This document shows, one piece after another, positions 10,187 through 56,232 of a DNA stretch of 64,000 bases (the first letter of the stretch is position 1; every line of letters starts with the position of its first letter). The translations under genes were made by a program, and so were the position numbers. Origin of the DNA: an uncultured Gammaproteobacteria bacterium (GTDB lineage: Bacteria; Patescibacteriota; Patescibacteriia; UBA9934; CAZDDW01); NCBI GenBank assembly GCA_965231015.1, contig OZ246408.1, positions 857,908 through 921,907 on the forward strand. The letters run 5' to 3'. The notes beneath the pieces were generated by a model. It was given only the letters and a program-made list of their open reading frames with translations. It made no database searches and was not told where the DNA came from.

Positions 10187-10270
10187 GACTTTGTCAAGGT
10201 TATTTCCTTGACATCTATCACTCCCAGTGCTATACTACCGCCCGCGTTCATATCAACACGGGGAGAAAAC

Positions 10271-10438
10271 ATGAACGACCCGACAAACGAGATTCAAGAC
10301 GTACCGGCGGACGAACGTGTGTTCGTCTGCGACTGGGTACCAGGCAGTGCTCTGCGCATCTGCTTCGTGCCGCTCGAGCCTGACTCGCCCGAGCCCACAT
10401 CTTCGAACCCGGATCAGCAGACGGATCCCGAACTCTGA
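10271..10438 (+). CDS. small acidic hypothetical protein (55 aa)
   Basis: ATG at 10271 preceded by GGGGAGAAAAC RBS-like sequence. Confidence 0.3.
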   Translation: MNDPTNEIQDVPADERVFVCDWVPGSALRICFVPLEPDSPEPTSSNPDQQTDPEL

Positions 10439-10645
10439 ACCCCAACGCAAAACCGAGCCCACGACGAGCTCGGCCCGCCCGAGGAGTATGTGAACTAGGC
10501 ACGAACAACACACACTCAATCACCAGCCGGACCCGTCTTCAAGGGCCCGGCGCGTTTTTTTCTTTGTTAGATTAAAAACGAAATCCCCAAGGTGAATTCC
10601 TTGGGGGGGTGAGTTAGTCATCACGTATATAGTGGAAGAAAAGAC

Positions 10646-29325: not shown

Positions 29326-30609
29326 CTACTTGACCTGCTCGGTCTTGTAGACCGTGCAGGTCTTGTAGGTACCAGTGGCGTCCTTGCTGTTGCGAGCGCA
29401 ACGACGGTCAACGCCGTCCGGGCACTCGAAGAGCAAGATGTGGTGGTCCAACAACTGGTAGCTCTGGCAGGTGGTCGATTCCTGATCGACCAGCTCGGAG
29501 CTCGACGTGCACTCGTCGGCGTGAGCCGGCGGATTCTTGCTCCCGTAGTCCATGATCGGCACGAGGAGCGCGAAGGCCAGCACAGCTGCGGCCACCGCGG
29601 CCTTGGCCACGGTACGACCGACCTGACGCGGCTGGCGCGTCGACATGATCTCGGTGATCTCGGTCTCGTCGTAGGTGACGTCGTCGTCCGGGTCCAGGCT
29701 CTCGATGACGGGCTCGGTGGCGGCCAGGCGTGCCTGGGCCATCAAACCATCCTCGATCCCGTTCACTCGACCCTTGAGCGCGTCGTGTTCGTCAGTCTGG
29801 ATCCGGATGATCTCGCGAAGCTCCGCGAGGTCTCGCTCCGACATCTGTCGGACGAACTCGGCGATCATCTCGGTCTCTTCTGATCGCACCTCGGCCTCGG
29901 TTCGGACAGTTCCGGCCAGATCCGTGAGACGCTGATCGATCTGTGCGATCTGCCGCGAACGGTCGGCGCCGTGCTCGAACAGTCGCTTGATGTCGGCGTG
30001 ATGCTCGGCCGTACGGGTCTTGAGCCCCGTCACGTCGCGGCCGTGTCCGTCCACGCGGTTCGTCAGCTTCTCCGCATCAGCTCGGATCTCGGTCCGCTCT
30101 TTGTCGGCCCGGTTGATCTGCGTCACCATATGCCGGGTCAGATGAACGAACGCTCGCTGGCGCTCTGCCAGCTCGAGCCGCTGGCGTCGAGCCGTCCGTT
30201 GCTCGTCCTCGATCGCCTTGAGCTTGTTGTGCACCTTCAGGTTCAAGTTCCCGAGTTGTCTCTTGATCCCGGCCCGCTCGTCGTTGGCGATCTTCCGGCC
30301 GGTGAGGAGCTTGGCCAGCTCCTTACGGAACTCGTCGAAGTCCTGCCTGAGCTTGGGAACCTCGCGCCGCTCGATCTGCTTGATCCTGGCTTTCAGGGTC
30401 TTCTGCTTGCGCACGAGCAGATTCAACTCCTCGTCCACATCGAGCTCCAGCACGAGGTCGTCCAGCTCTTCACCAAGGTCGACATCATCCGCATCGTCCG
30501 GCTCGGCACCACAGAACTCGGGCACATCGATGTAGCTCTGACTGGCTCGTTCGGTCTCGCACCTGTTCAAGGTCTCGAGCCAATGAGCAGCCTGCTTATC
30601 ACTCGTCAT
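29326..30609 (-). CDS. coiled-coil protein with C-terminal TM anchor and Cys-rich extracytoplasmic tail (start at MTSDKQ, RBS GGGAGGAGGAA)
   Basis: Long E/R/K-rich heptad region, hydrophobic AAVAAAVLAFALLVPIM, terminal Cys cluster; G/C-ending codon bias. Confidence 0.5.
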   Translation of the reverse strand: MTSDKQAAHWLETLNRCETERASQSYIDVPEFCGAEPDDADDVDLGEELDDLVLELDVDEELNLLVRKQKTLKARIKQIERREVPKLRQDFDEFRKELAKLLTGRKIANDERAGIKRQLGNLNLKVHNKLKAIEDEQRTARRQRLELAERQRAFVHLTRHMVTQINRADKERTEIRADAEKLTNRVDGHGRDVTGLKTRTAEHHADIKRLFEHGADRSRQIAQIDQRLTDLAGTVRTEAEVRSEETEMIAEFVRQMSERDLAELREIIRIQTDEHDALKGRVNGIEDGLMAQARLAATEPVIESLDPDDDVTYDETEITEIMSTRQPRQVGRTVAKAAVAAAVLAFALLVPIMDYGSKNPPAHADECTSSSELVDQESTTCQSYQLLDHHILLFECPDGVDRRCARNSKDATGTYKTCTVYKTEQVK

Positions 30610-30873
30610 CGGGGGTTCCTCCTCCCGTTGTTGGTTGCAAATTTTAAATGCCACTGCCCTACTTTTAAGCCAAAACTGGGCTTAATTTCGAACTAAGTAA
30701 ATTATCAGAAAAAGGGTAGTTTGTCAACCCCCTGTCGTACGGGACTGACCTCGTTCAACAAGGTCAAGAGTTATCCTATAATTAGAAGCCCCCGACACAA
30801 GCGTCACACATTCGTTCGTGTGAGCCCATGTCAGGGGCAGAGCCGCCGAGATCTTCGGCGGGAAGGGGGTTTT

Positions 30874-31938
30874 TTAGGACTGGGGGTGAAGCGCGTTCCA
30901 GTCCGCTTCGAGTGCCTGGAGCATCTCGTCGCGGTGCGGGAACGCCTGATCCACGAGCCGCAGCTCGTAGTGGGCGCGCTTGACGCGCGCTTCGGACTTG
31001 GTCTTGTCGAACCGGGTCGACAGCGTGGCGATCGCCCACTTGTAACGAGCGATCTGATCCGCGCCGGAGTGACCTCGACCGGCGTCCACGTACCGGTTCA
31101 AATACGTGAGCTCCATCTCGCCGAGGCTCGTCTTGATCTCGGAGACCGTCTTGTCCTCCTGCTGGAGGACCCCGAGCTTGAACTCGAGGTCACGGAAGTC
31201 GGCTCCCGCGGCCCGCCAGTGGCTTGCGAGCACGGTCCCGGATTCGAGGGAATCGAGCCCGATGGCCGTCACGACCTCCGGGTCGGCGTTGCGGATGGCG
31301 GTCACGACCTGGAACACGACGTTCGGGTCGGCCGTGGCGTGCGCCATGATCGCCGGCAGCTCCGGACACTCCGGGAGCAGACCGAGCTGGGTCGGCACCT
31401 CGACGGGCATACCCGCGGCCACGTAGGCCGCGAACACGTTGGACCAGTTCTGGAGGTAAATGGGTACCTCCTGCTCCCCGGCCACCACGGCGCCGTCACG
31501 ATCGAACTCGCGGAGCATGACCGTGACGATGTTCGGTCCGACTTCGCGCGGGAGCTGGGGCCAGCCGGTCGTGTCGATCGACTCGAACAGCTTGGCCGCG
31601 GCGTAGTAGGGCCGCAGCTTCTTCAGGGCCCTGGCGTTCATCTCGTCCACGTGAACCTGCGGGTCCACGGGAACTTCGATCGCGGGTTCAGGCTCGGACT
31701 TGGGCTCGACCGCGGGTGCGGGTGCGGCCGGACTCGCCGGCTGTCCGGTGGCCGTCTCGACGACCTGCTCGGGCTGCTCCACAGCCCGCTTGTTCTTGAC
31801 CGCCTTGACGATCAAGAAGGTCGCGGTCAGTCCGACCATGATCAAGAACACCACCAGACCGCCGACGGCGGGCCACATCCAGCGCGGCAGCGGTGCCTCT
31901 TCCGTGAGAACGGGGGATGAAACATGTTCCGTGGTCAT
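30874..31938 (-). CDS. membrane-anchored hypothetical protein (start at MTTEHV; N-terminal TM helix WMWPAVGGLVVFLIMVGLTATFLIV)
   Basis: Longest ORF in this GC-rich segment, sensible composition; antisense 399-aa ORF is R/G/L-rich. Confidence 0.5.
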   Translation of the reverse strand: MTTEHVSSPVLTEEAPLPRWMWPAVGGLVVFLIMVGLTATFLIVKAVKNKRAVEQPEQVVETATGQPASPAAPAPAVEPKSEPEPAIEVPVDPQVHVDEMNARALKKLRPYYAAAKLFESIDTTGWPQLPREVGPNIVTVMLREFDRDGAVVAGEQEVPIYLQNWSNVFAAYVAAGMPVEVPTQLGLLPECPELPAIMAHATADPNVVFQVVTAIRNADPEVVTAIGLDSLESGTVLASHWRAAGADFRDLEFKLGVLQQEDKTVSEIKTSLGEMELTYLNRYVDAGRGHSGADQIARYKWAIATLSTRFDKTKSEARVKRAHYELRLVDQAFPHRDEMLQALEADWNALHPQS

Positions 31939-32105
31939 CTCTTCCTCCTTGCTATTTTGGGCCCTTTCGGGCTCCCGTTTTGGGGCCCGTACAGGGCGAA
32001 TCAAAGCGTCCGAGGGTGAAAAATTTCACCTGTTACGAACGACGTAATGTATCATATTTTAGCCAAAAAGTCAACCCCTAAAGGTTGTTTTTGGCCAAAA
32101 TATAA

Positions 32106-52978: not shown

Positions 52979-55009
52979 TTATCGTTTAGAAACGCCTTCA
53001 ATTTTCAACTGACGCTGTTTTTGTTCTTCAGTATAAATCTCTAAAATATCACCCACATCAGCCTTTACCTTTCCTTTGTATTGAATACCACACTCCTGTC
53101 CTTTCAAAACCTCTGAGGTATCCTGTTTATTAGCTTGCAATTTAAGCATCTCTGCTTCACCAATAATATCCTCTCCGCGCATTATGCGCAACTTTGAGTC
53201 TTTTACTGCTGTTCCCTCGATAACCTTACCCCCGATAATAAAGCCATTGTCCAACTTCTTAAAGTTGGCCAGGACTTCAGCCTTACCATGTTCCTTCACA
53301 ATCGTTTCCATTGGCATGATCTTTTCTATGCGTTCAATCACGTCTTCAAAAAGTTTATAAATCACAGAAACTTCCTTGATCTCCACTTCTTTATCTCGAG
53401 CCAATTCCGCGGCTGTTGCTGAAGGGGTGACATTGAAAGCATAAATCACTGCATCACTGGCTTCTGCATTCATAACCTCAACATCAGTAACTGAACCAAG
53501 ACCCTTGTTAATCACATTAACCTCCACATCCGGATTCTTTTGAACTTTTTCCAGCATGCCAAGCACTGCTTCAAGTGAACCTAACACATCAGCTTTGATA
53601 ATGATATTTAGTTCCGGTTTTTTGTCTTCCTCATCTTCTGTTGCAACGTGTTGAGTTTTAGCCGCCCCTAATTCTTCAAACACGGCCGTCTTGGCTGTCT
53701 TTAACCGGTCTTTCTTCAAATCCTTAATATTATCTGGAACCTCCACAATATCACCCACGGTCGGAGCAGCCTTAAACCCTAAAATACGAATTGGGGTTGA
53801 CGGCGGAGCCTCTTTTACGTCTCGACCTAGATAATTTTTCATCGACTTCACTCGTCCATACAAAACACCATGTAAACCAAGTGTATCTCCTACTTTTAAT
53901 GTCCCGGTCTGAATCAAAACCGTGGCCACAGGTCCGGCTCCGGCATCAATCTGCGAATCAATCACAGTACCAATTGCCGGACGATCCGGATTAGCCACAA
54001 TTTTGTCTTTTTCCAAGTCAGCCACCAAAAGCAACATATCAAGCACCTCATCAATTCCTTGCATTTGTTTGGCAGAAATCGGTACCATGATGGTTTTGCC
54101 ACCCCAATCTTCCGGGGTAAGACCGTATTCAGCCAGTTGCCCCTTAACCATATCAATATTATTTGGAGCTTTATCAATTTTATTAAGAGCAACAATAAAC
54201 GGCATCCCTGAAGCCTTAATAATATCGATTGCCTCCTTAGTCTGGGGCTGAACCCCATCGTCAACCGCCACAACGAGAATGGCAATATCTGCCACCTTGG
54301 CACCTCGTGAACGCATGACCGTAAAAGCTTCGTGTCCCGGGGTATCAATAAAAGTAAGAGGGTGATTTTTGCGCTCCACCTGGTACGCTCCAATATGCTG
54401 AGTGATTCCACCAGCCTCTTCATCAACTACGTTAGTAGAACGGATAGCGTCCAAAAGTTTAGTTTTTCCATGATCAACGTGCCCCATTACCACTACAACC
54501 GGTGGGCGCGGCTTAACAGTCTCTTCAGCTGACATTATTTCTTCAGCTCTTTCTTGGGCCTCTACCTGTTCTTCGGTCTCTTGACTCTCACCTGCCGATA
54601 CAGCCTCAAATCCAAGATCACCAGCAAGAATAGAAGCGGTTTCAAAATCGATCTTATCATTCAACGAAAGCAACATTCCGGCCTTCATGATTTCCTGCAT
54701 GACGCGAGCGACCGGCAAATTCAAATAACCGGCCAATTCCCGAACAGTGGTTGAAGAAGGTAATTCCACTTGTGGCACATCCTTGGGTGATTCTTCCACG
54801 TCAGTTTCTACTTGGGTTTTTTGTAAATCTCTTTTAGCCTTTAATCTTTCTCGCTTCCGATATTCTGCCCAGGCCTCAATAATCTGATGAGCAATTCGGT
54901 CATCAACTTTAATGGCCCGACGACCAATACTAAAACCAAGCTCCGGTAATTTATCCCGTAGCTCTTCAGGGTTTACGTTCAGTTTTCTGGCTAGTTCAGT
55001 TACGTTCAT
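52979..55009 (-). CDS. infB: translation initiation factor IF-2 (short N-terminal region)
   Basis: [20 protein letters not shown]1 motif; 676 aa. Confidence 0.95.
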   Translation of the reverse strand: MNVTELARKLNVNPEELRDKLPELGFSIGRRAIKVDDRIAHQIIEAWAEYRKRERLKAKRDLQKTQVETDVEESPKDVPQVELPSSTTVRELAGYLNLPVARVMQEIMKAGMLLSLNDKIDFETASILAGDLGFEAVSAGESQETEEQVEAQERAEEIMSAEETVKPRPPVVVVMGHVDHGKTKLLDAIRSTNVVDEEAGGITQHIGAYQVERKNHPLTFIDTPGHEAFTVMRSRGAKVADIAILVVAVDDGVQPQTKEAIDIIKASGMPFIVALNKIDKAPNNIDMVKGQLAEYGLTPEDWGGKTIMVPISAKQMQGIDEVLDMLLLVADLEKDKIVANPDRPAIGTVIDSQIDAGAGPVATVLIQTGTLKVGDTLGLHGVLYGRVKSMKNYLGRDVKEAPPSTPIRILGFKAAPTVGDIVEVPDNIKDLKKDRLKTAKTAVFEELGAAKTQHVATEDEEDKKPELNIIIKADVLGSLEAVLGMLEKVQKNPDVEVNVINKGLGSVTDVEVMNAEASDAVIYAFNVTPSATAAELARDKEVEIKEVSVIYKLFEDVIERIEKIMPMETIVKEHGKAEVLANFKKLDNGFIIGGKVIEGTAVKDSKLRIMRGEDIIGEAEMLKLQANKQDTSEVLKGQECGIQYKGKVKADVGDILEIYTEEQKQRQLKIEGVSKR

Positions 55010-55049
55010 AAGTGCGGCTAGTGTACAAAAAATGAGCTAAAAAGTCAAT

Positions 55050-55340
55050 TATAAAGGGGCGGTTAAGTTGGAATCGGACCAAGCTTAACCGCCCCGGCGC
55101 GTGTGGCTGACGCAAGACAACTGCATCAACCGGGCAACGAACCGTCGAAGTGGGAGGAATCGCGGCTCGTAAAGAACTTGGGAAGGTGCGGCAGGGAGCG
55201 GGGTATCCCTGCCGCACCCGGGTGAGTCCGGTGAGGGAGCCGGACGTAGGAGCCTGGAATGGTCGGGGCAACCGGAGAGCACGCCAAGCGCCCGTGTATC
55301 GCTCTCCGGCGCCCCTGCACCATGTCGCTAAATTAACGCT
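55050..55340 (-). ncRNA. structured ncRNA candidate (~285 nt, ~62% GC) in infB/truB divergent intergenic region; class unresolved
   Basis: Consensus -35 TTGACA on minus strand (rc of 55359-55364) preceded by AT-rich heptamer repeats. 16-bp hairpin (55055-55094) followed on minus strand by UUUAUAAUU = intrinsic terminator. Perfect 13-bp hairpin GGUGCGGCAGGGA/UCCCUGCCGCACC (55185-55218); 9-bp CCGGAGAGC/GCUCUCCGG helix; no coding potential. Confidence 0.35.
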
Positions 55341-55365
55341 AACACCCACCTATAATTATGTCAAG

Positions 55366-55405
55366 ATACTTTATACTTTATACTTTATACTTAATACTTT
55401 ATACT
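55366..55405. repeat. tandem heptamer repeat (ATACTTT)x5.5 immediately upstream of truB ATG
   Basis: atacttt atacttt atacttt atactta atacttt atact. Confidence 0.6.
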
Positions 55406-55413
55406 GCTCACAT

Positions 55414-56109
55414 ATGCAAGGCTTTATTTTAATTGACAAACCAACTGACTGGACCAGCCACGATGTTGTGAATCGAGTTCGAAAGCTGACCGGCGAACGC
55501 AAAGTCGGCCACGCCGGCACCCTGGATCCGTTTGCGACCGGGTTGCTGATTATTGGGGTTGGAAAAAAATACACTAAACAACTAGGTGAACTGATTGGGC
55601 TCAACAAAGAATACGAGGCAACGTTTGTTCTTGGTGCCACGAGCGCTACCGATGACCCGGAAGGACCAATCACTGAACGACGTGCGACGTGCGACGTGCG
55701 ACGTGCCCAAATCGAGGAGGCCATGAAAAAATACATGGGCGAAATCGACCAAGTTCCTCCGCGTTTTGCTGCCATTAAAAAAGACGGCAAGAAGTTATAC
55801 GAAAAAGCTCGAGCTGGAGAAGAATTTGAACCTGAATCTCGCAAGGTCAGAGTCGATGAATATGAGCTTCTCAAAACATCAGACGATAATCACAAATTAA
55901 AAGTCCGGATCAAATGTGGATCCGGGACCTATATTCGAGCTTTAGCGCGAGACTTAGGAAACGATCTTGGAGTCGGCGGTTATGTAAGTGAGCTTAGACG
56001 AACTAGGGTGGGAGACTTTGATGTTTCCGATTCAACACCCCTTGAGGAACTCGCCCCTAACAACATCGAGTCAAAAATTTTTCAAAAAGAAGAAGCGGGA
56101 TCCCGGTAG
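55414..56109 (+). CDS. truB: tRNA pseudouridine(55) synthase TruB, containing an in-frame (GACGTGC)x4 repeat
   Basis: MQGFILIDKPTDWTSHDVVNRVRKL...GHAGTLDP catalytic Asp motif; repeat encodes ERRATCDVRRAQ. Confidence 0.9.
   Translation: MQGFILIDKPTDWTSHDVVNRVRKLTGERKVGHAGTLDPFATGLLIIGVGKKYTKQLGELIGLNKEYEATFVLGATSATDDPEGPITERRATCDVRRAQIEEAMKKYMGEIDQVPPRFAAIKKDGKKLYEKARAGEEFEPESRKVRVDEYELLKTSDDNHKLKVRIKCGSGTYIRALARDLGNDLGVGGYVSELRRTRVGDFDVSDSTPLEELAPNNIESKIFQKEEAGSR
55679..55706 (+). repeat. (GACGTGC)x4 heptamer repeat inside truB coding sequence
   Basis: same heptamer family as rplB/rplC upstream modules, in transcript sense. Confidence 0.6.
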
Positions 56110-56128: not shown

Positions 56129-56232
56129 TGGTGAGGCCAGATGGAATCGAACCATCGACCGCTGGGGCTCCTCTGGACCATCTAGAACTTGACGACCCAT
56201 ACCCAGTGCTCTACCAGCTGAGCTATAGCCTC
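56129..56232 (-). tRNA. tRNA gene (104 nt, CCA-encoded) with ~28-nt insertion/intron-like segment in the anticodon-loop region; isotype undetermined
   Basis: acceptor GAGGCUA/UGGCCUC, U8A9, D-arm GCUC-AGCUGGUA-GAGC, anticodon stem CUGGG/CCCAG separated by 35 nt instead of 7, variable CGGUC, T-arm GAUGG-UUCGAUU-CCAUC, discriminator A + CCA. Confidence 0.55.

Follow-up and report, generated by a model that had tools for sequence, protein, structure and literature searches.

A predicted minus-strand structured RNA gene between infB and truB in a Candidatus Uhrbacteria genome

The GC-rich block between infB and truB

We here describe a GC-rich block at positions 55050-55340 of a 64-kb stretch of DNA (64,000 nucleotides (nt) of contig OZ246408.1, in the following called the window, with positions counted from its first letter), whose host is placed in Candidatus Uhrbacteria, Patescibacteria, by the relatives of its translation initiation factor 2 (IF2). 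The block lies between the divergent genes infB (52979-55009, minus strand) and truB (55414-56109, plus strand), and its GC content of 62.5% compares with 43.7% in the flank at 54700-55040, 46.6% in the flank at 55345-55700 and 45.9% in the whole window. A first-pass annotation, made from the letters alone, had proposed a structured non-coding RNA of about 62% GC in this divergent intergenic region, and composition and gene arrangement both agree with that description. On balance, we favour the reading that the block is a minus-strand small non-coding RNA gene of one narrow lineage, whose product acts on its own as a stable, free RNA. What the evidence supports in this reading is that there is a gene, that it lies on the minus strand and that it is non-coding, and sequence comparison points to a genuine, selected, structured RNA gene that belongs to no known family.

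The minus strand of the block folds with -149.9 kcal/mol (z = -7.96) and the plus strand with -141.6 kcal/mol (z = -4.92), and for either strand none of 100 dinucleotide shuffles folded as well. Minimum free energy (MFE) and centroid folds of the minus strand are multi-branched with seven separate helices, and the bases left unpaired are poor in G (A22 C43 G13 U36). The hairpins listed in the first-pass annotation could all be located. Its 13-bp hairpin is a perfect inverted repeat (55185-55197 / 55206-55218), which reaches 14 pairs when G·U is included; its 16-bp hairpin consists of a perfect 12-bp repeat (55056-55067 / 55084-55095) with 4 more pairs past one bulged base; and its 9-bp helix with a 20-nt loop corresponds to a repeat at 55272-55280 / 55301-55309, the arms being 20 nt apart, which forms the core of a longer 16-bp helix. 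No second copy of the block was found elsewhere in the 64-kb window.

The predicted transcription unit

The features of the unit are given below from the truB side towards infB. Handles beginning with L denote related loci, among which L002 carries the same element.

55359..55364, minus strand: -35 hexamer of promoter P1, TTGACA, read directly; TTGAC[AG] is conserved in 10 related loci with otherwise unalignable flanks
55336..55344, minus strand: extended -10 element of P1 (TGT TAGCGT), of the form TGnTAnnnT, 17 nt from the -35 hexamer
55047..55329, minus strand: predicted RNA of ~280 nt and 63% GC, based on the fold z-score and conservation relative to L002, with inferred ends
55259..55323, minus strand: closing stem AUGGU/ACCAU around helix H1 (16 bp, 55265-55315); 21 of 21 pairs form in the window and in L002
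55226..55245, minus strand: helix H3, GUCCGG, loop CUCCCUCA, CCGGAC; six pairs invariant between the window and L002
55184..55219, minus strand: helix H4, 14 bp, loop UACCCCGC, followed by single-stranded UCCCAAGUUC; contains the 13-bp hairpin
55137..55170, minus strand: helix H5, 4 + 7 bp, loop UUCCUCCCACU; every pair kept in L002
55105..55131, minus strand: helix H6, a hairpin of 11 bp, which varies more than any other part; a hairpin lies at the same place in L002
55047..55095, minus strand: predicted intrinsic terminator H7, 12 + 4 bp around one bulge, loop UCCGAUU, then UUUAUAAUU; -26.7 kcal/mol
55020..55048, minus strand: predicted infB promoter P2 (TTGACT, 17 nt, TACACT), flagged by a consensus scan; it bounds the RNA and is not part of it

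The TTGACA that had been noted in the first-pass annotation is part of a promoter architecture that recurs in the relatives. The 17-nt spacing together with TGnTAnnnT is observed in the window, L002, L004, L005 (twice), L006, L008, L012, L018 and L020, so that the exact spacer with its TG extension is found in 9 of 10 related loci; in L010 the spacer measures 18 nt. We placed the 5' end of the RNA 7 nt past the P1 -10 element and its 3' end within the U-tract. It should be noted that a simple consensus scan of the region flags the infB and truB promoters only. P1 escapes it because the -10 hexamer TAGCGT matches 3 of 6 positions of TATAAT, and the terminator because its stem is bulged; both are proposed on the strength of their conservation in related loci. 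At the terminator position, a GC-rich hairpin with a U-rich tail is present in all relatives that bear an element. The P2 -35 begins 8 bases past the terminator hairpin of the window, and P2 is conserved ahead of infB in every relative, including those that lack a GC-rich block. Since P2 lies downstream of the terminator and is conserved, the block can be considered a unit separate from infB. It shows what is expected of a stand-alone small RNA (sRNA) gene, namely a predicted promoter of its own, a predicted intrinsic terminator at the 3' end, and a non-coding sequence conserved beyond the neutral rate.

The minus strand is best read as the transcribed strand, on several independent lines: the fold is better there, the unpaired bases are poor in G, P1 lies upstream, and H7 with UUUAUAAUU lies downstream. 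Furthermore, two C-to-U changes in L002 stand opposite G and would become A·C mismatches on the plus strand; G·U pairs are present in five helices of the minus-strand structure. The first-pass proposal of a structured minus-strand RNA running from the TTGACA promoter to the 16-bp terminator hairpin is therefore upheld.

Comparison with L002 shows where the individual helices vary. In H1, which includes the 9-bp helix mentioned above, a 9-nt duplication in L002 is limited to the loop. H3 is followed directly by the conserved linker UCACCC. H4 shows one G-C to G·U change and one double change of A-U to U·G, and H5 one C-G to U·G change next to a 6-nt insertion in its internal loop. H6 displays ~9 differing positions and indels, and L002 forms a 9-10 bp hairpin here in shifted register. 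H7 carries one double compensatory change, U-A to A-U. As a side observation, the G-C closed terminator loop UCCGAUU (55068-55082), which adjoins the gene of the U55 pseudouridine synthase, fits the U-N-N-R-A pattern of T-loops with C at the place of tRNA U55; this loop is conserved in L002 only, and the resemblance may be coincidence.

Conservation in L002 and evidence for selection

L002 and L003 are one and the same sequence, obtained in two sequencing runs, and its IF2 shares 90% identity with that of the window. At the equivalent site L002 carries the element with ~88% identity, gaps excluded, corresponding to 35 substitutions in ~300 aligned positions. Between the same two genomes, fourfold-degenerate sites are 49% identical in infB, 43% in truB, 58% in trx and 50% in trxB, and the spacer between the truB start and P1 largely differs.

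For the comparison of structures we used a curated model comprising the closing stem AUGGU/ACCAU, H1, H3, H4, H5 and H7, in which AUGGU/ACCAU replaces a closing stem GGUGC/GCGCC seen in the window only. All 68 of its 68 pairs form in both sequences. Six substitutions fall into the 136 stem columns and 29 into the ~165 other aligned columns, and all six stem substitutions keep pairing, through two double compensatory changes (H4, H7) and two changes to G·U. The strong evidence for selection is conservation well above neutral and not covariation. Purifying selection is seen on the helices as well as on several C-rich segments that are unpaired (CUCCCUCA, UCACCC, UCCCAAGUUC and UUCCUCCCACU).

Comparison with known RNA families

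The first-pass annotation had left signal recognition particle (SRP) RNA, 6S RNA, transfer-messenger RNA (tmRNA) and an RNA specific to the Candidate Phyla Radiation (CPR) open as classes, and had suggested a search against Rfam. This search, with Rfam 15 at gathering score over the whole window, returned three tRNAs only and no family on the block. At E <= 10 on 54950-55480, all matches were at chance level (mir-1538, FinP, BjrC80, isrK and snoRNAs among them, the best being mir-1538 with E = 0.16), and no SRP RNA, 6S RNA, tmRNA, RNase P RNA, riboswitch or T-box was found; the sole cis-regulatory match, nhaA-I, is likewise at chance level (12.9 bits, E = 5.3). None of the SRP, 6S, tmRNA and RNase P families was detected in seven related loci at gathering score or in the elements of L004, L005 and L006 at E <= 10, where matches stayed at chance level. 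ARAGORN reported three tRNAs in the window, and no tmRNA or tRNA in the block.

Inspection of hallmark features agrees with these searches. SRP RNA is recognised by its domain IV, a helix that is capped by a GNRA/GGAA tetraloop and interrupted by conserved loops of the symmetric and the asymmetric type (AGCAGC side). The hairpin that had been thought faintly reminiscent of domain IV, GUCCGG-UGAGGGAG-CCGGAC, was read on the plus strand, which is not the transcribed one; this H3-type hairpin has an 8-nt loop and lacks the domain IV motifs, and no SRP model matches. 6S RNA, of ~180 nt, folds into a single long and irregular helix, and the large bubble at its centre imitates an open promoter; the fold of the block is multi-hairpin instead of a rod with a central bubble, and it matches no 6S model. 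tmRNA combines a tRNA-like acceptor and T-arm domain, built from both ends, with a tag reading frame; no model match, no ARAGORN hit and, on reading, no tRNA-like ends were found. For RNase P RNA there is no model match either, and the P4 core motifs GGAAAGUCC ... ACAGAAnnCGGCUUA are absent by reading on either strand, a look-alike GGGAGGAAUCGCGG on the plus strand having no 3' partner. A T-box sequence was not seen on reading. Among the classes offered at the outset, a CPR-specific RNA is thus the sole one left standing.

It could still be argued that the block is a highly diverged housekeeping RNA (6S, SRP, tmRNA or RNase P RNA), missed by the Rfam models in this phylum. The strong predicted promoter and a size within range would fit, the genome is small, the 64-kb window holds no copies of those RNAs, and 6S RNAs in particular are hard to detect by sequence. 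However, the families are absent even at E <= 10, also in the related loci examined, and neither a GGAA-tetraloop/AGCAGC domain IV motif nor GGAAAGUCC nor tRNA-like ends are seen on reading. An essential RNA would moreover not be missing in L008, L021 and L022 or split by a transposase gene in L010, and we regard this explanation as highly improbable.

Protein-coding potential and the annotation of TruB

In the public gene call (P0121), TruB has 319 amino acids (aa) and spans 55150-56109, running from GTG 55150 through the RNA element. Open reading frames (ORFs) of 65-117 aa cross the block, so that the first-pass statement of no plausible ORF does not hold literally; none of them is conserved. 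Open frames are to be expected at 63% GC. The longest, a 117-aa minus-strand ORF at 54996-55349, aligns to L002 by tblastn with 64% identity, which at 88% nucleotide identity equals the expectation for neutral translation, and it has no Pfam match. Against coding by either this ORF or an N-terminal extension of TruB stand indels of 1, 1, 1, 2, 2, 6 and 9 nt between the window and L002, which break the frame, stop codons in the matching frame of L002, and substitutions spread over the codon positions as 10/13/9 and 6/5/7 in the two candidate frames, with no third-position bias. In the flanking genes, by comparison, codon positions 1-2 are 91-97% identical and position 3 is 44-69% identical. The comparison with related genomes, which had also been suggested at the outset, thereby returned an 88% identical homologue in L002 and ruled out a protein-coding remnant through the indels and the even spread of substitutions; the chance that the block is protein-coding seems close to negligible. 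A leaderless small ORF starting at AUG 55323 was considered as well and rejected; owing to a 1-nt indel it would yield unrelated products of 66 aa in the window and 70 aa in L002.

The other TruB proteins listed are all shorter (204-281 aa, mostly under 260), and the TruB Pfam domain starts at residue 23 counted from ATG 55414. These comparisons indicate that ATG 55414 is the real start of truB, with a predicted product of 231 aa. The TruB call of L008 (272 aa) looks over-extended in the same manner. The 319-aa TruB is therefore a concrete case in which an RNA has been concealed in public annotation by a protein call that was extended too far.

The slot between P1 and P2 in related genomes

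The gene order rny, truB, then divergent infB, trx, trxB and gdh is conserved in all relatives that were fetched. In other members of the clade, the slot between P1 and P2 holds GC-rich positional analogues of 280-540 nt, which begin after P1 and end in a hairpin and U-rich tail just before P2. None of the analogues in the other relatives resembles the RNA of the window by blastn. L004 and L020 have a common unit of ~500 nt, 68-70% identical over two segments totalling ~330 nt, in which 24 of 110 predicted pairs are changed on both sides. Another common unit, with 76% identity over 221 nt, is found in L010/L011 and L012, and L006 carries a unit of ~410 nt. In L005 (1790-2465), two successive promoter-to-terminator units are seen, with P1-type promoters at intergenic positions 76 and 399 and the first unit ending in a hairpin directly ahead of the second -35; L005 may therefore carry two tandem RNA genes. 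In L021 and L022, more distant Uhrbacteria with 57-60% identity in IF2, the intergenic region measures 140-190 nt and contains P2 only. In L018, the closest TruB relative (77% identical), the contig stops exactly at P1, leaving the element off the contig. As judged from these loci, the slot is a clade-specific, fast-changing and dispensable site, and the version of the RNA found in the window appears narrowly distributed, being known from two genomes only.

Searches further afield gave no additional members. A scan of genome contigs with IF2 reached only an Ignavibacterium locus at 40% identity, and a scan of metagenome contigs with the pattern CCCTCA-N6-TCACCC-N25-50-CCTTCCCAAG gave five chance matches on unrelated, eukaryote-like contigs with no other similarity. 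Scans of viral contigs gave nothing or a bare 21-nt match. In the literature on non-coding RNAs of Patescibacteria/CPR, no description of such an RNA was found.

By eye, all units have a module in common: a small hairpin is followed by a linker rich in C (UCACCC, ACACCC, CCCCCUCU ...) and a long GC helix with GG(G/U)NGNGG at the start of its 5' arm, after which come UUCC and an A/U-rich tail. We built a covariance model of this module from L004, L005, L012 and L020 only, with hand-trimmed inner loops. On both strands of the 64-kb window its top match is H4 with its tail (55172-55227, minus strand, 19 bits, E = 0.0017). With filters off, H4 of L002 ranks second in its locus (11.1 bits) and the long hairpin of L006 first in its locus (9.9 bits), both scores being non-significant; the model also gives the terminator of L002 14.7 bits. 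In the reverse direction, a covariance model of the 5' half from the window and L002 had no significant match in any of the other loci (L006 only, E = 0.95). Shared ancestry of the RNA of the window with its positional analogues is at most suggested by these matches. A step further, they might all form one fast-evolving, clade-specific structured-RNA family acting in translation initiation, an idea that we hold tentatively and think rather unlikely as it stands. Such a family would share the module described above as its core (from the small hairpin to the UUCC tail), with variable domains added to it, and could for example mimic a ligand, ribosomal or tRNA, of IF2 or TruB, or decoy the anti-Shine-Dalgarno sequence. 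If the analogues do prove to be one family, it would be a new class of functional RNA and not a one-off sRNA, and a tractable case of a structured RNA that evolves very fast while its place in the genome stays fixed.

In the same intergenic region of L012, a ~150-nt insert (~2345-2495) with terminal inverted repeats GGATACGAACTACGAAA / TTTCGTAGTTCGTATCC separates P2 from the infB ATG and has the appearance of a miniature transposable element.

Proposed mode of action and alternatives

We propose a model in which RNA polymerase would start at P1 (TTGACA, 17 nt, TGtTAGCGT) near position ~55329, as suggested by the position of the promoter, and would transcribe ~280 nt, which according to the computed structure fold into a 5' closing stem with the long H1, hairpins H3-H6 and the terminator hairpin H7. 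Transcription would presumably stop at H7 and its U-tract, 8 nt short of the P2 -35, and infB would be transcribed separately from P2 with almost no leader. The RNA could then act either through pairing of its loops with targets rich in G or as the ligand of a protein; which partner it has is a guess. Since both the helices and the unpaired C-rich segments are under purifying selection, a free stable RNA is the most likely product, and it is more likely that it acts as such than as a switch for infB. The unpaired segments that are identical in the window and L002 are C-rich (CUCCCUCA, UCACCC, UCCCAAGUUC and UUCCUCCCACU); an exact CCUCC occurs once among them and is complementary to GGAGG, the ribosome-binding site found elsewhere in the window.

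Several observations weigh against this model. By our own estimate, an RNA of such length and C content would contain roughly one CCUCC by chance, and complementarity to the 5' ends of infB and truB is no better than in shuffled controls. Promoter, start site and terminator are all predictions from the sequence, and the U-tract is short, so that read-through into infB is possible. Regarding the structure, only two distinct sequences of the window type exist (the window, and L002 = L003), 64 of the 68 pairs never vary between them, and the shuffle control is non-significant (126 of 500). When the MFE fold of the window itself is taken as reference, 8 of 14 changed pairs break (P = 0.12); the broken pairs are located in H6, in the closing stem GGUGC/GCGCC, which is not conserved in L002, and among minor pairs. 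Finally, the element is missing in L008, where P1 abuts P2 (TAGTTT CAATTTTA TTGACT), and the unit of L010 is interrupted by an ISL3-family transposase gene (L010 1244-2230), which sits between P1 and the 3' part common to L011 and L012; it is therefore dispensable in these genomes.

The alternative that deserves most attention is a cis-acting infB leader, in which infB has P1 as a distal promoter, and the folded RNA and the terminator together form an attenuator that sets the flow from P1 into infB, its cue being, for instance, a translation factor, temperature or a ligand. The element is co-oriented with infB and directly upstream of it, P1 abuts P2 in L008 and so probably once drove infB, leakage through the short U-tract UUUAUAAUU is plausible, and the top of the terminator takes part in a small three-way complementarity of AUGGU, ACCAU and UGGUC. 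However, the best alternative pairing of the terminator 5' arm reaches -18.9 compared to -26.7 kcal/mol, is not conserved in L002 and opens the top 4 pairs only. Leaders of the riboswitch, T-box or ribosomal-protein type are defined by a conserved aptamer family and by terminator and antiterminator folds that exclude each other; no such family matches above chance, infB has its own conserved P2 downstream, and in L008, L021 and L022 infB is apparently driven from P2 without any element. A switch is unlikely because a competing antiterminator was not found, P2 is conserved and infB is present in relatives without the element; we consider the leader a minority explanation, if one to be taken seriously.

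A functionless relic of foreign or mobile GC-rich DNA, inserted at an insertion-prone spot with hairpins as remnants of element ends, would account for the GC content far above that of the genome and for the sequence between P1 and P2 that differs almost wholly among relatives, one site being empty and one holding an ISL3 transposase; AT-rich junctions could also hide a short target duplication such as TTTA. Yet a relic is hard to reconcile with 88% identity to L002 where neutral sites show ~50%, with stems 4-fold better conserved than the rest and with compensatory changes. The window also lacks a second copy, the metagenome and viral scans yielded no match, and terminal inverted repeats were limited to AT-rich chance matches, which makes this explanation improbable to us. 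Still less probable is a functional RNA on the plus strand, for instance a long leader of truB, or an RNA rich in G whose loops carry GGAGG/GGA. This strand does fold better than its shuffles (z = -4.92), and its loops would hold Shine-Dalgarno-like GGGAGG motifs, but the fold is weaker than that of the minus strand, whose G·U pairs and C-to-U changes would turn into A·C mismatches. The scan yields no promoter before the block and no terminator after it on the plus strand, and truB has a predicted promoter of its own 8 nt ahead of its ATG.

Taking a free minus-strand RNA as the preferred reading, likenesses to known systems can be drawn. The GC-rich intergenic region (GC-IGR) candidates of the Breaker laboratory (raiA) as well as OLE, ROOL and GOLLD are alike in that they stand out as GC-rich islands from an AT-richer genome, form many stable helices, show no sign of coding and have transcription signals of their own. 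In contrast to them, the RNA described here matches none of their Rfam models, is known from two genomes only and has thin covariation support; it is also smaller than OLE, ROOL and GOLLD. Firmicutes possess sRNAs with C-rich loops, namely RsaE/RoxS, the Rsa RNAs with a UCCC motif and the hairpins of RNAIII. The RNA of the window resembles these as a stand-alone, terminator-ended RNA whose C-rich loops (CUCCCUCA, UUCCUCCCACU, UCCCAAG) are able to pair with GGAGG-type sites; compared to RsaE it is three times longer and has no sequence or structural homology, so that the likeness is analogy only.

With respect to its location, metY heads the E. coli metY-rimP-nusA-infB operon and is likewise a stable-RNA gene directly upstream of and co-oriented with infB, with termination or processing before the protein genes. 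Here, however, the RNA is not a tRNA, nusA and rimP are not present, infB has its own predicted promoter, and UCCGAUU is only loosely T-loop-like. The Listeria RNAs SreA/SreB are riboswitch-derived sRNAs freed from 5' leaders by premature termination. They are alike in starting at an upstream promoter and ending at a terminator before a gene, which gives a free RNA, and differ in that for the RNA of the window no ligand-binding family or antiterminator was found and a separate promoter of the downstream gene follows past the terminator.

The genomes of CPR bacteria are tiny, and to our knowledge hardly any regulatory RNAs have been described from them. The RNA of the window would be among the first lineage-specific non-coding RNAs documented in this group, adjoining the genes for initiation factor 2 and tRNA pseudouridine-55 synthase, with different and larger structured RNAs in the same slot of sister genomes.

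The infB and truB promoters and other features of the window

The -10 of P2 ends 10 nt before the infB ATG at 55009 in the window (within 55007-55048) and, counting L002, L005, L006 and L020 as well, 9-10 nt before it, with no Shine-Dalgarno sequence, and the infB mRNA should therefore be nearly leaderless. In L008, L021 and L022, infB leaders measure 30-75 nt instead. Leaderless translation depends on IF2, and a near-leaderless infB could be relevant to infB control. On the other side, the truB promoter flagged by the scan within 55377-55416 (TTTATA, 17 nt, TATACT) ends 8 nt before ATG 55414, so truB looks nearly leaderless, too.

The AT-rich heptamers that had been noted upstream of TTGACA form the following feature:

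55366..55405, no strand assigned: tandem array of the heptamer ATACTTT, 5.7 copies by Tandem Repeats Finder, lying between truB start and P1 -35; overlaps the truB promoter

The UP-like role assigned to them in the first-pass annotation is doubtful, since the units of relatives are GC-richer (GGTACAG, AGGTACA). Arrays with a period of 7-8 nt occupy this site in every relative checked (L002 783-802, L008 2317-2352, L012 1869-1903), and the units differ among the window and its relatives (ATACTTT, GGTACAG, AGGTACA, CATGAAAT), the repeat character being kept and the sequence not. The array could be a binding site of a regulator for the divergent promoters.

Beyond truB, a tRNA-Arg(TCT) is located at 56132-56232 on the minus strand, with 101 nt by Rfam and 88 nt by ARAGORN, and with an insertion of ~25 nt in the anticodon region. 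A 101-nt tRNA is found at the equivalent place in L004 (766-866), and the extra segment may be an intron or an insertion. Two ORFs lie side by side on the minus strand at 29326-32004, with their ATGs near 30609 and 31941; they have 62-73% GC compared to 46% for the genome and strong GGAGG ribosome-binding sites, match nothing in Pfam or Rfam and may be foreign or orphan genes. Another GC-rich block at 10190-10560 displays a promoter (TTGACA, 17 nt, TGCTATACT), a GGGGAG ribosome-binding site, a small ORF from ATG 10272 and a terminator-like hairpin near 10525-10560, and in sequence looks like a small-protein gene, not an RNA.

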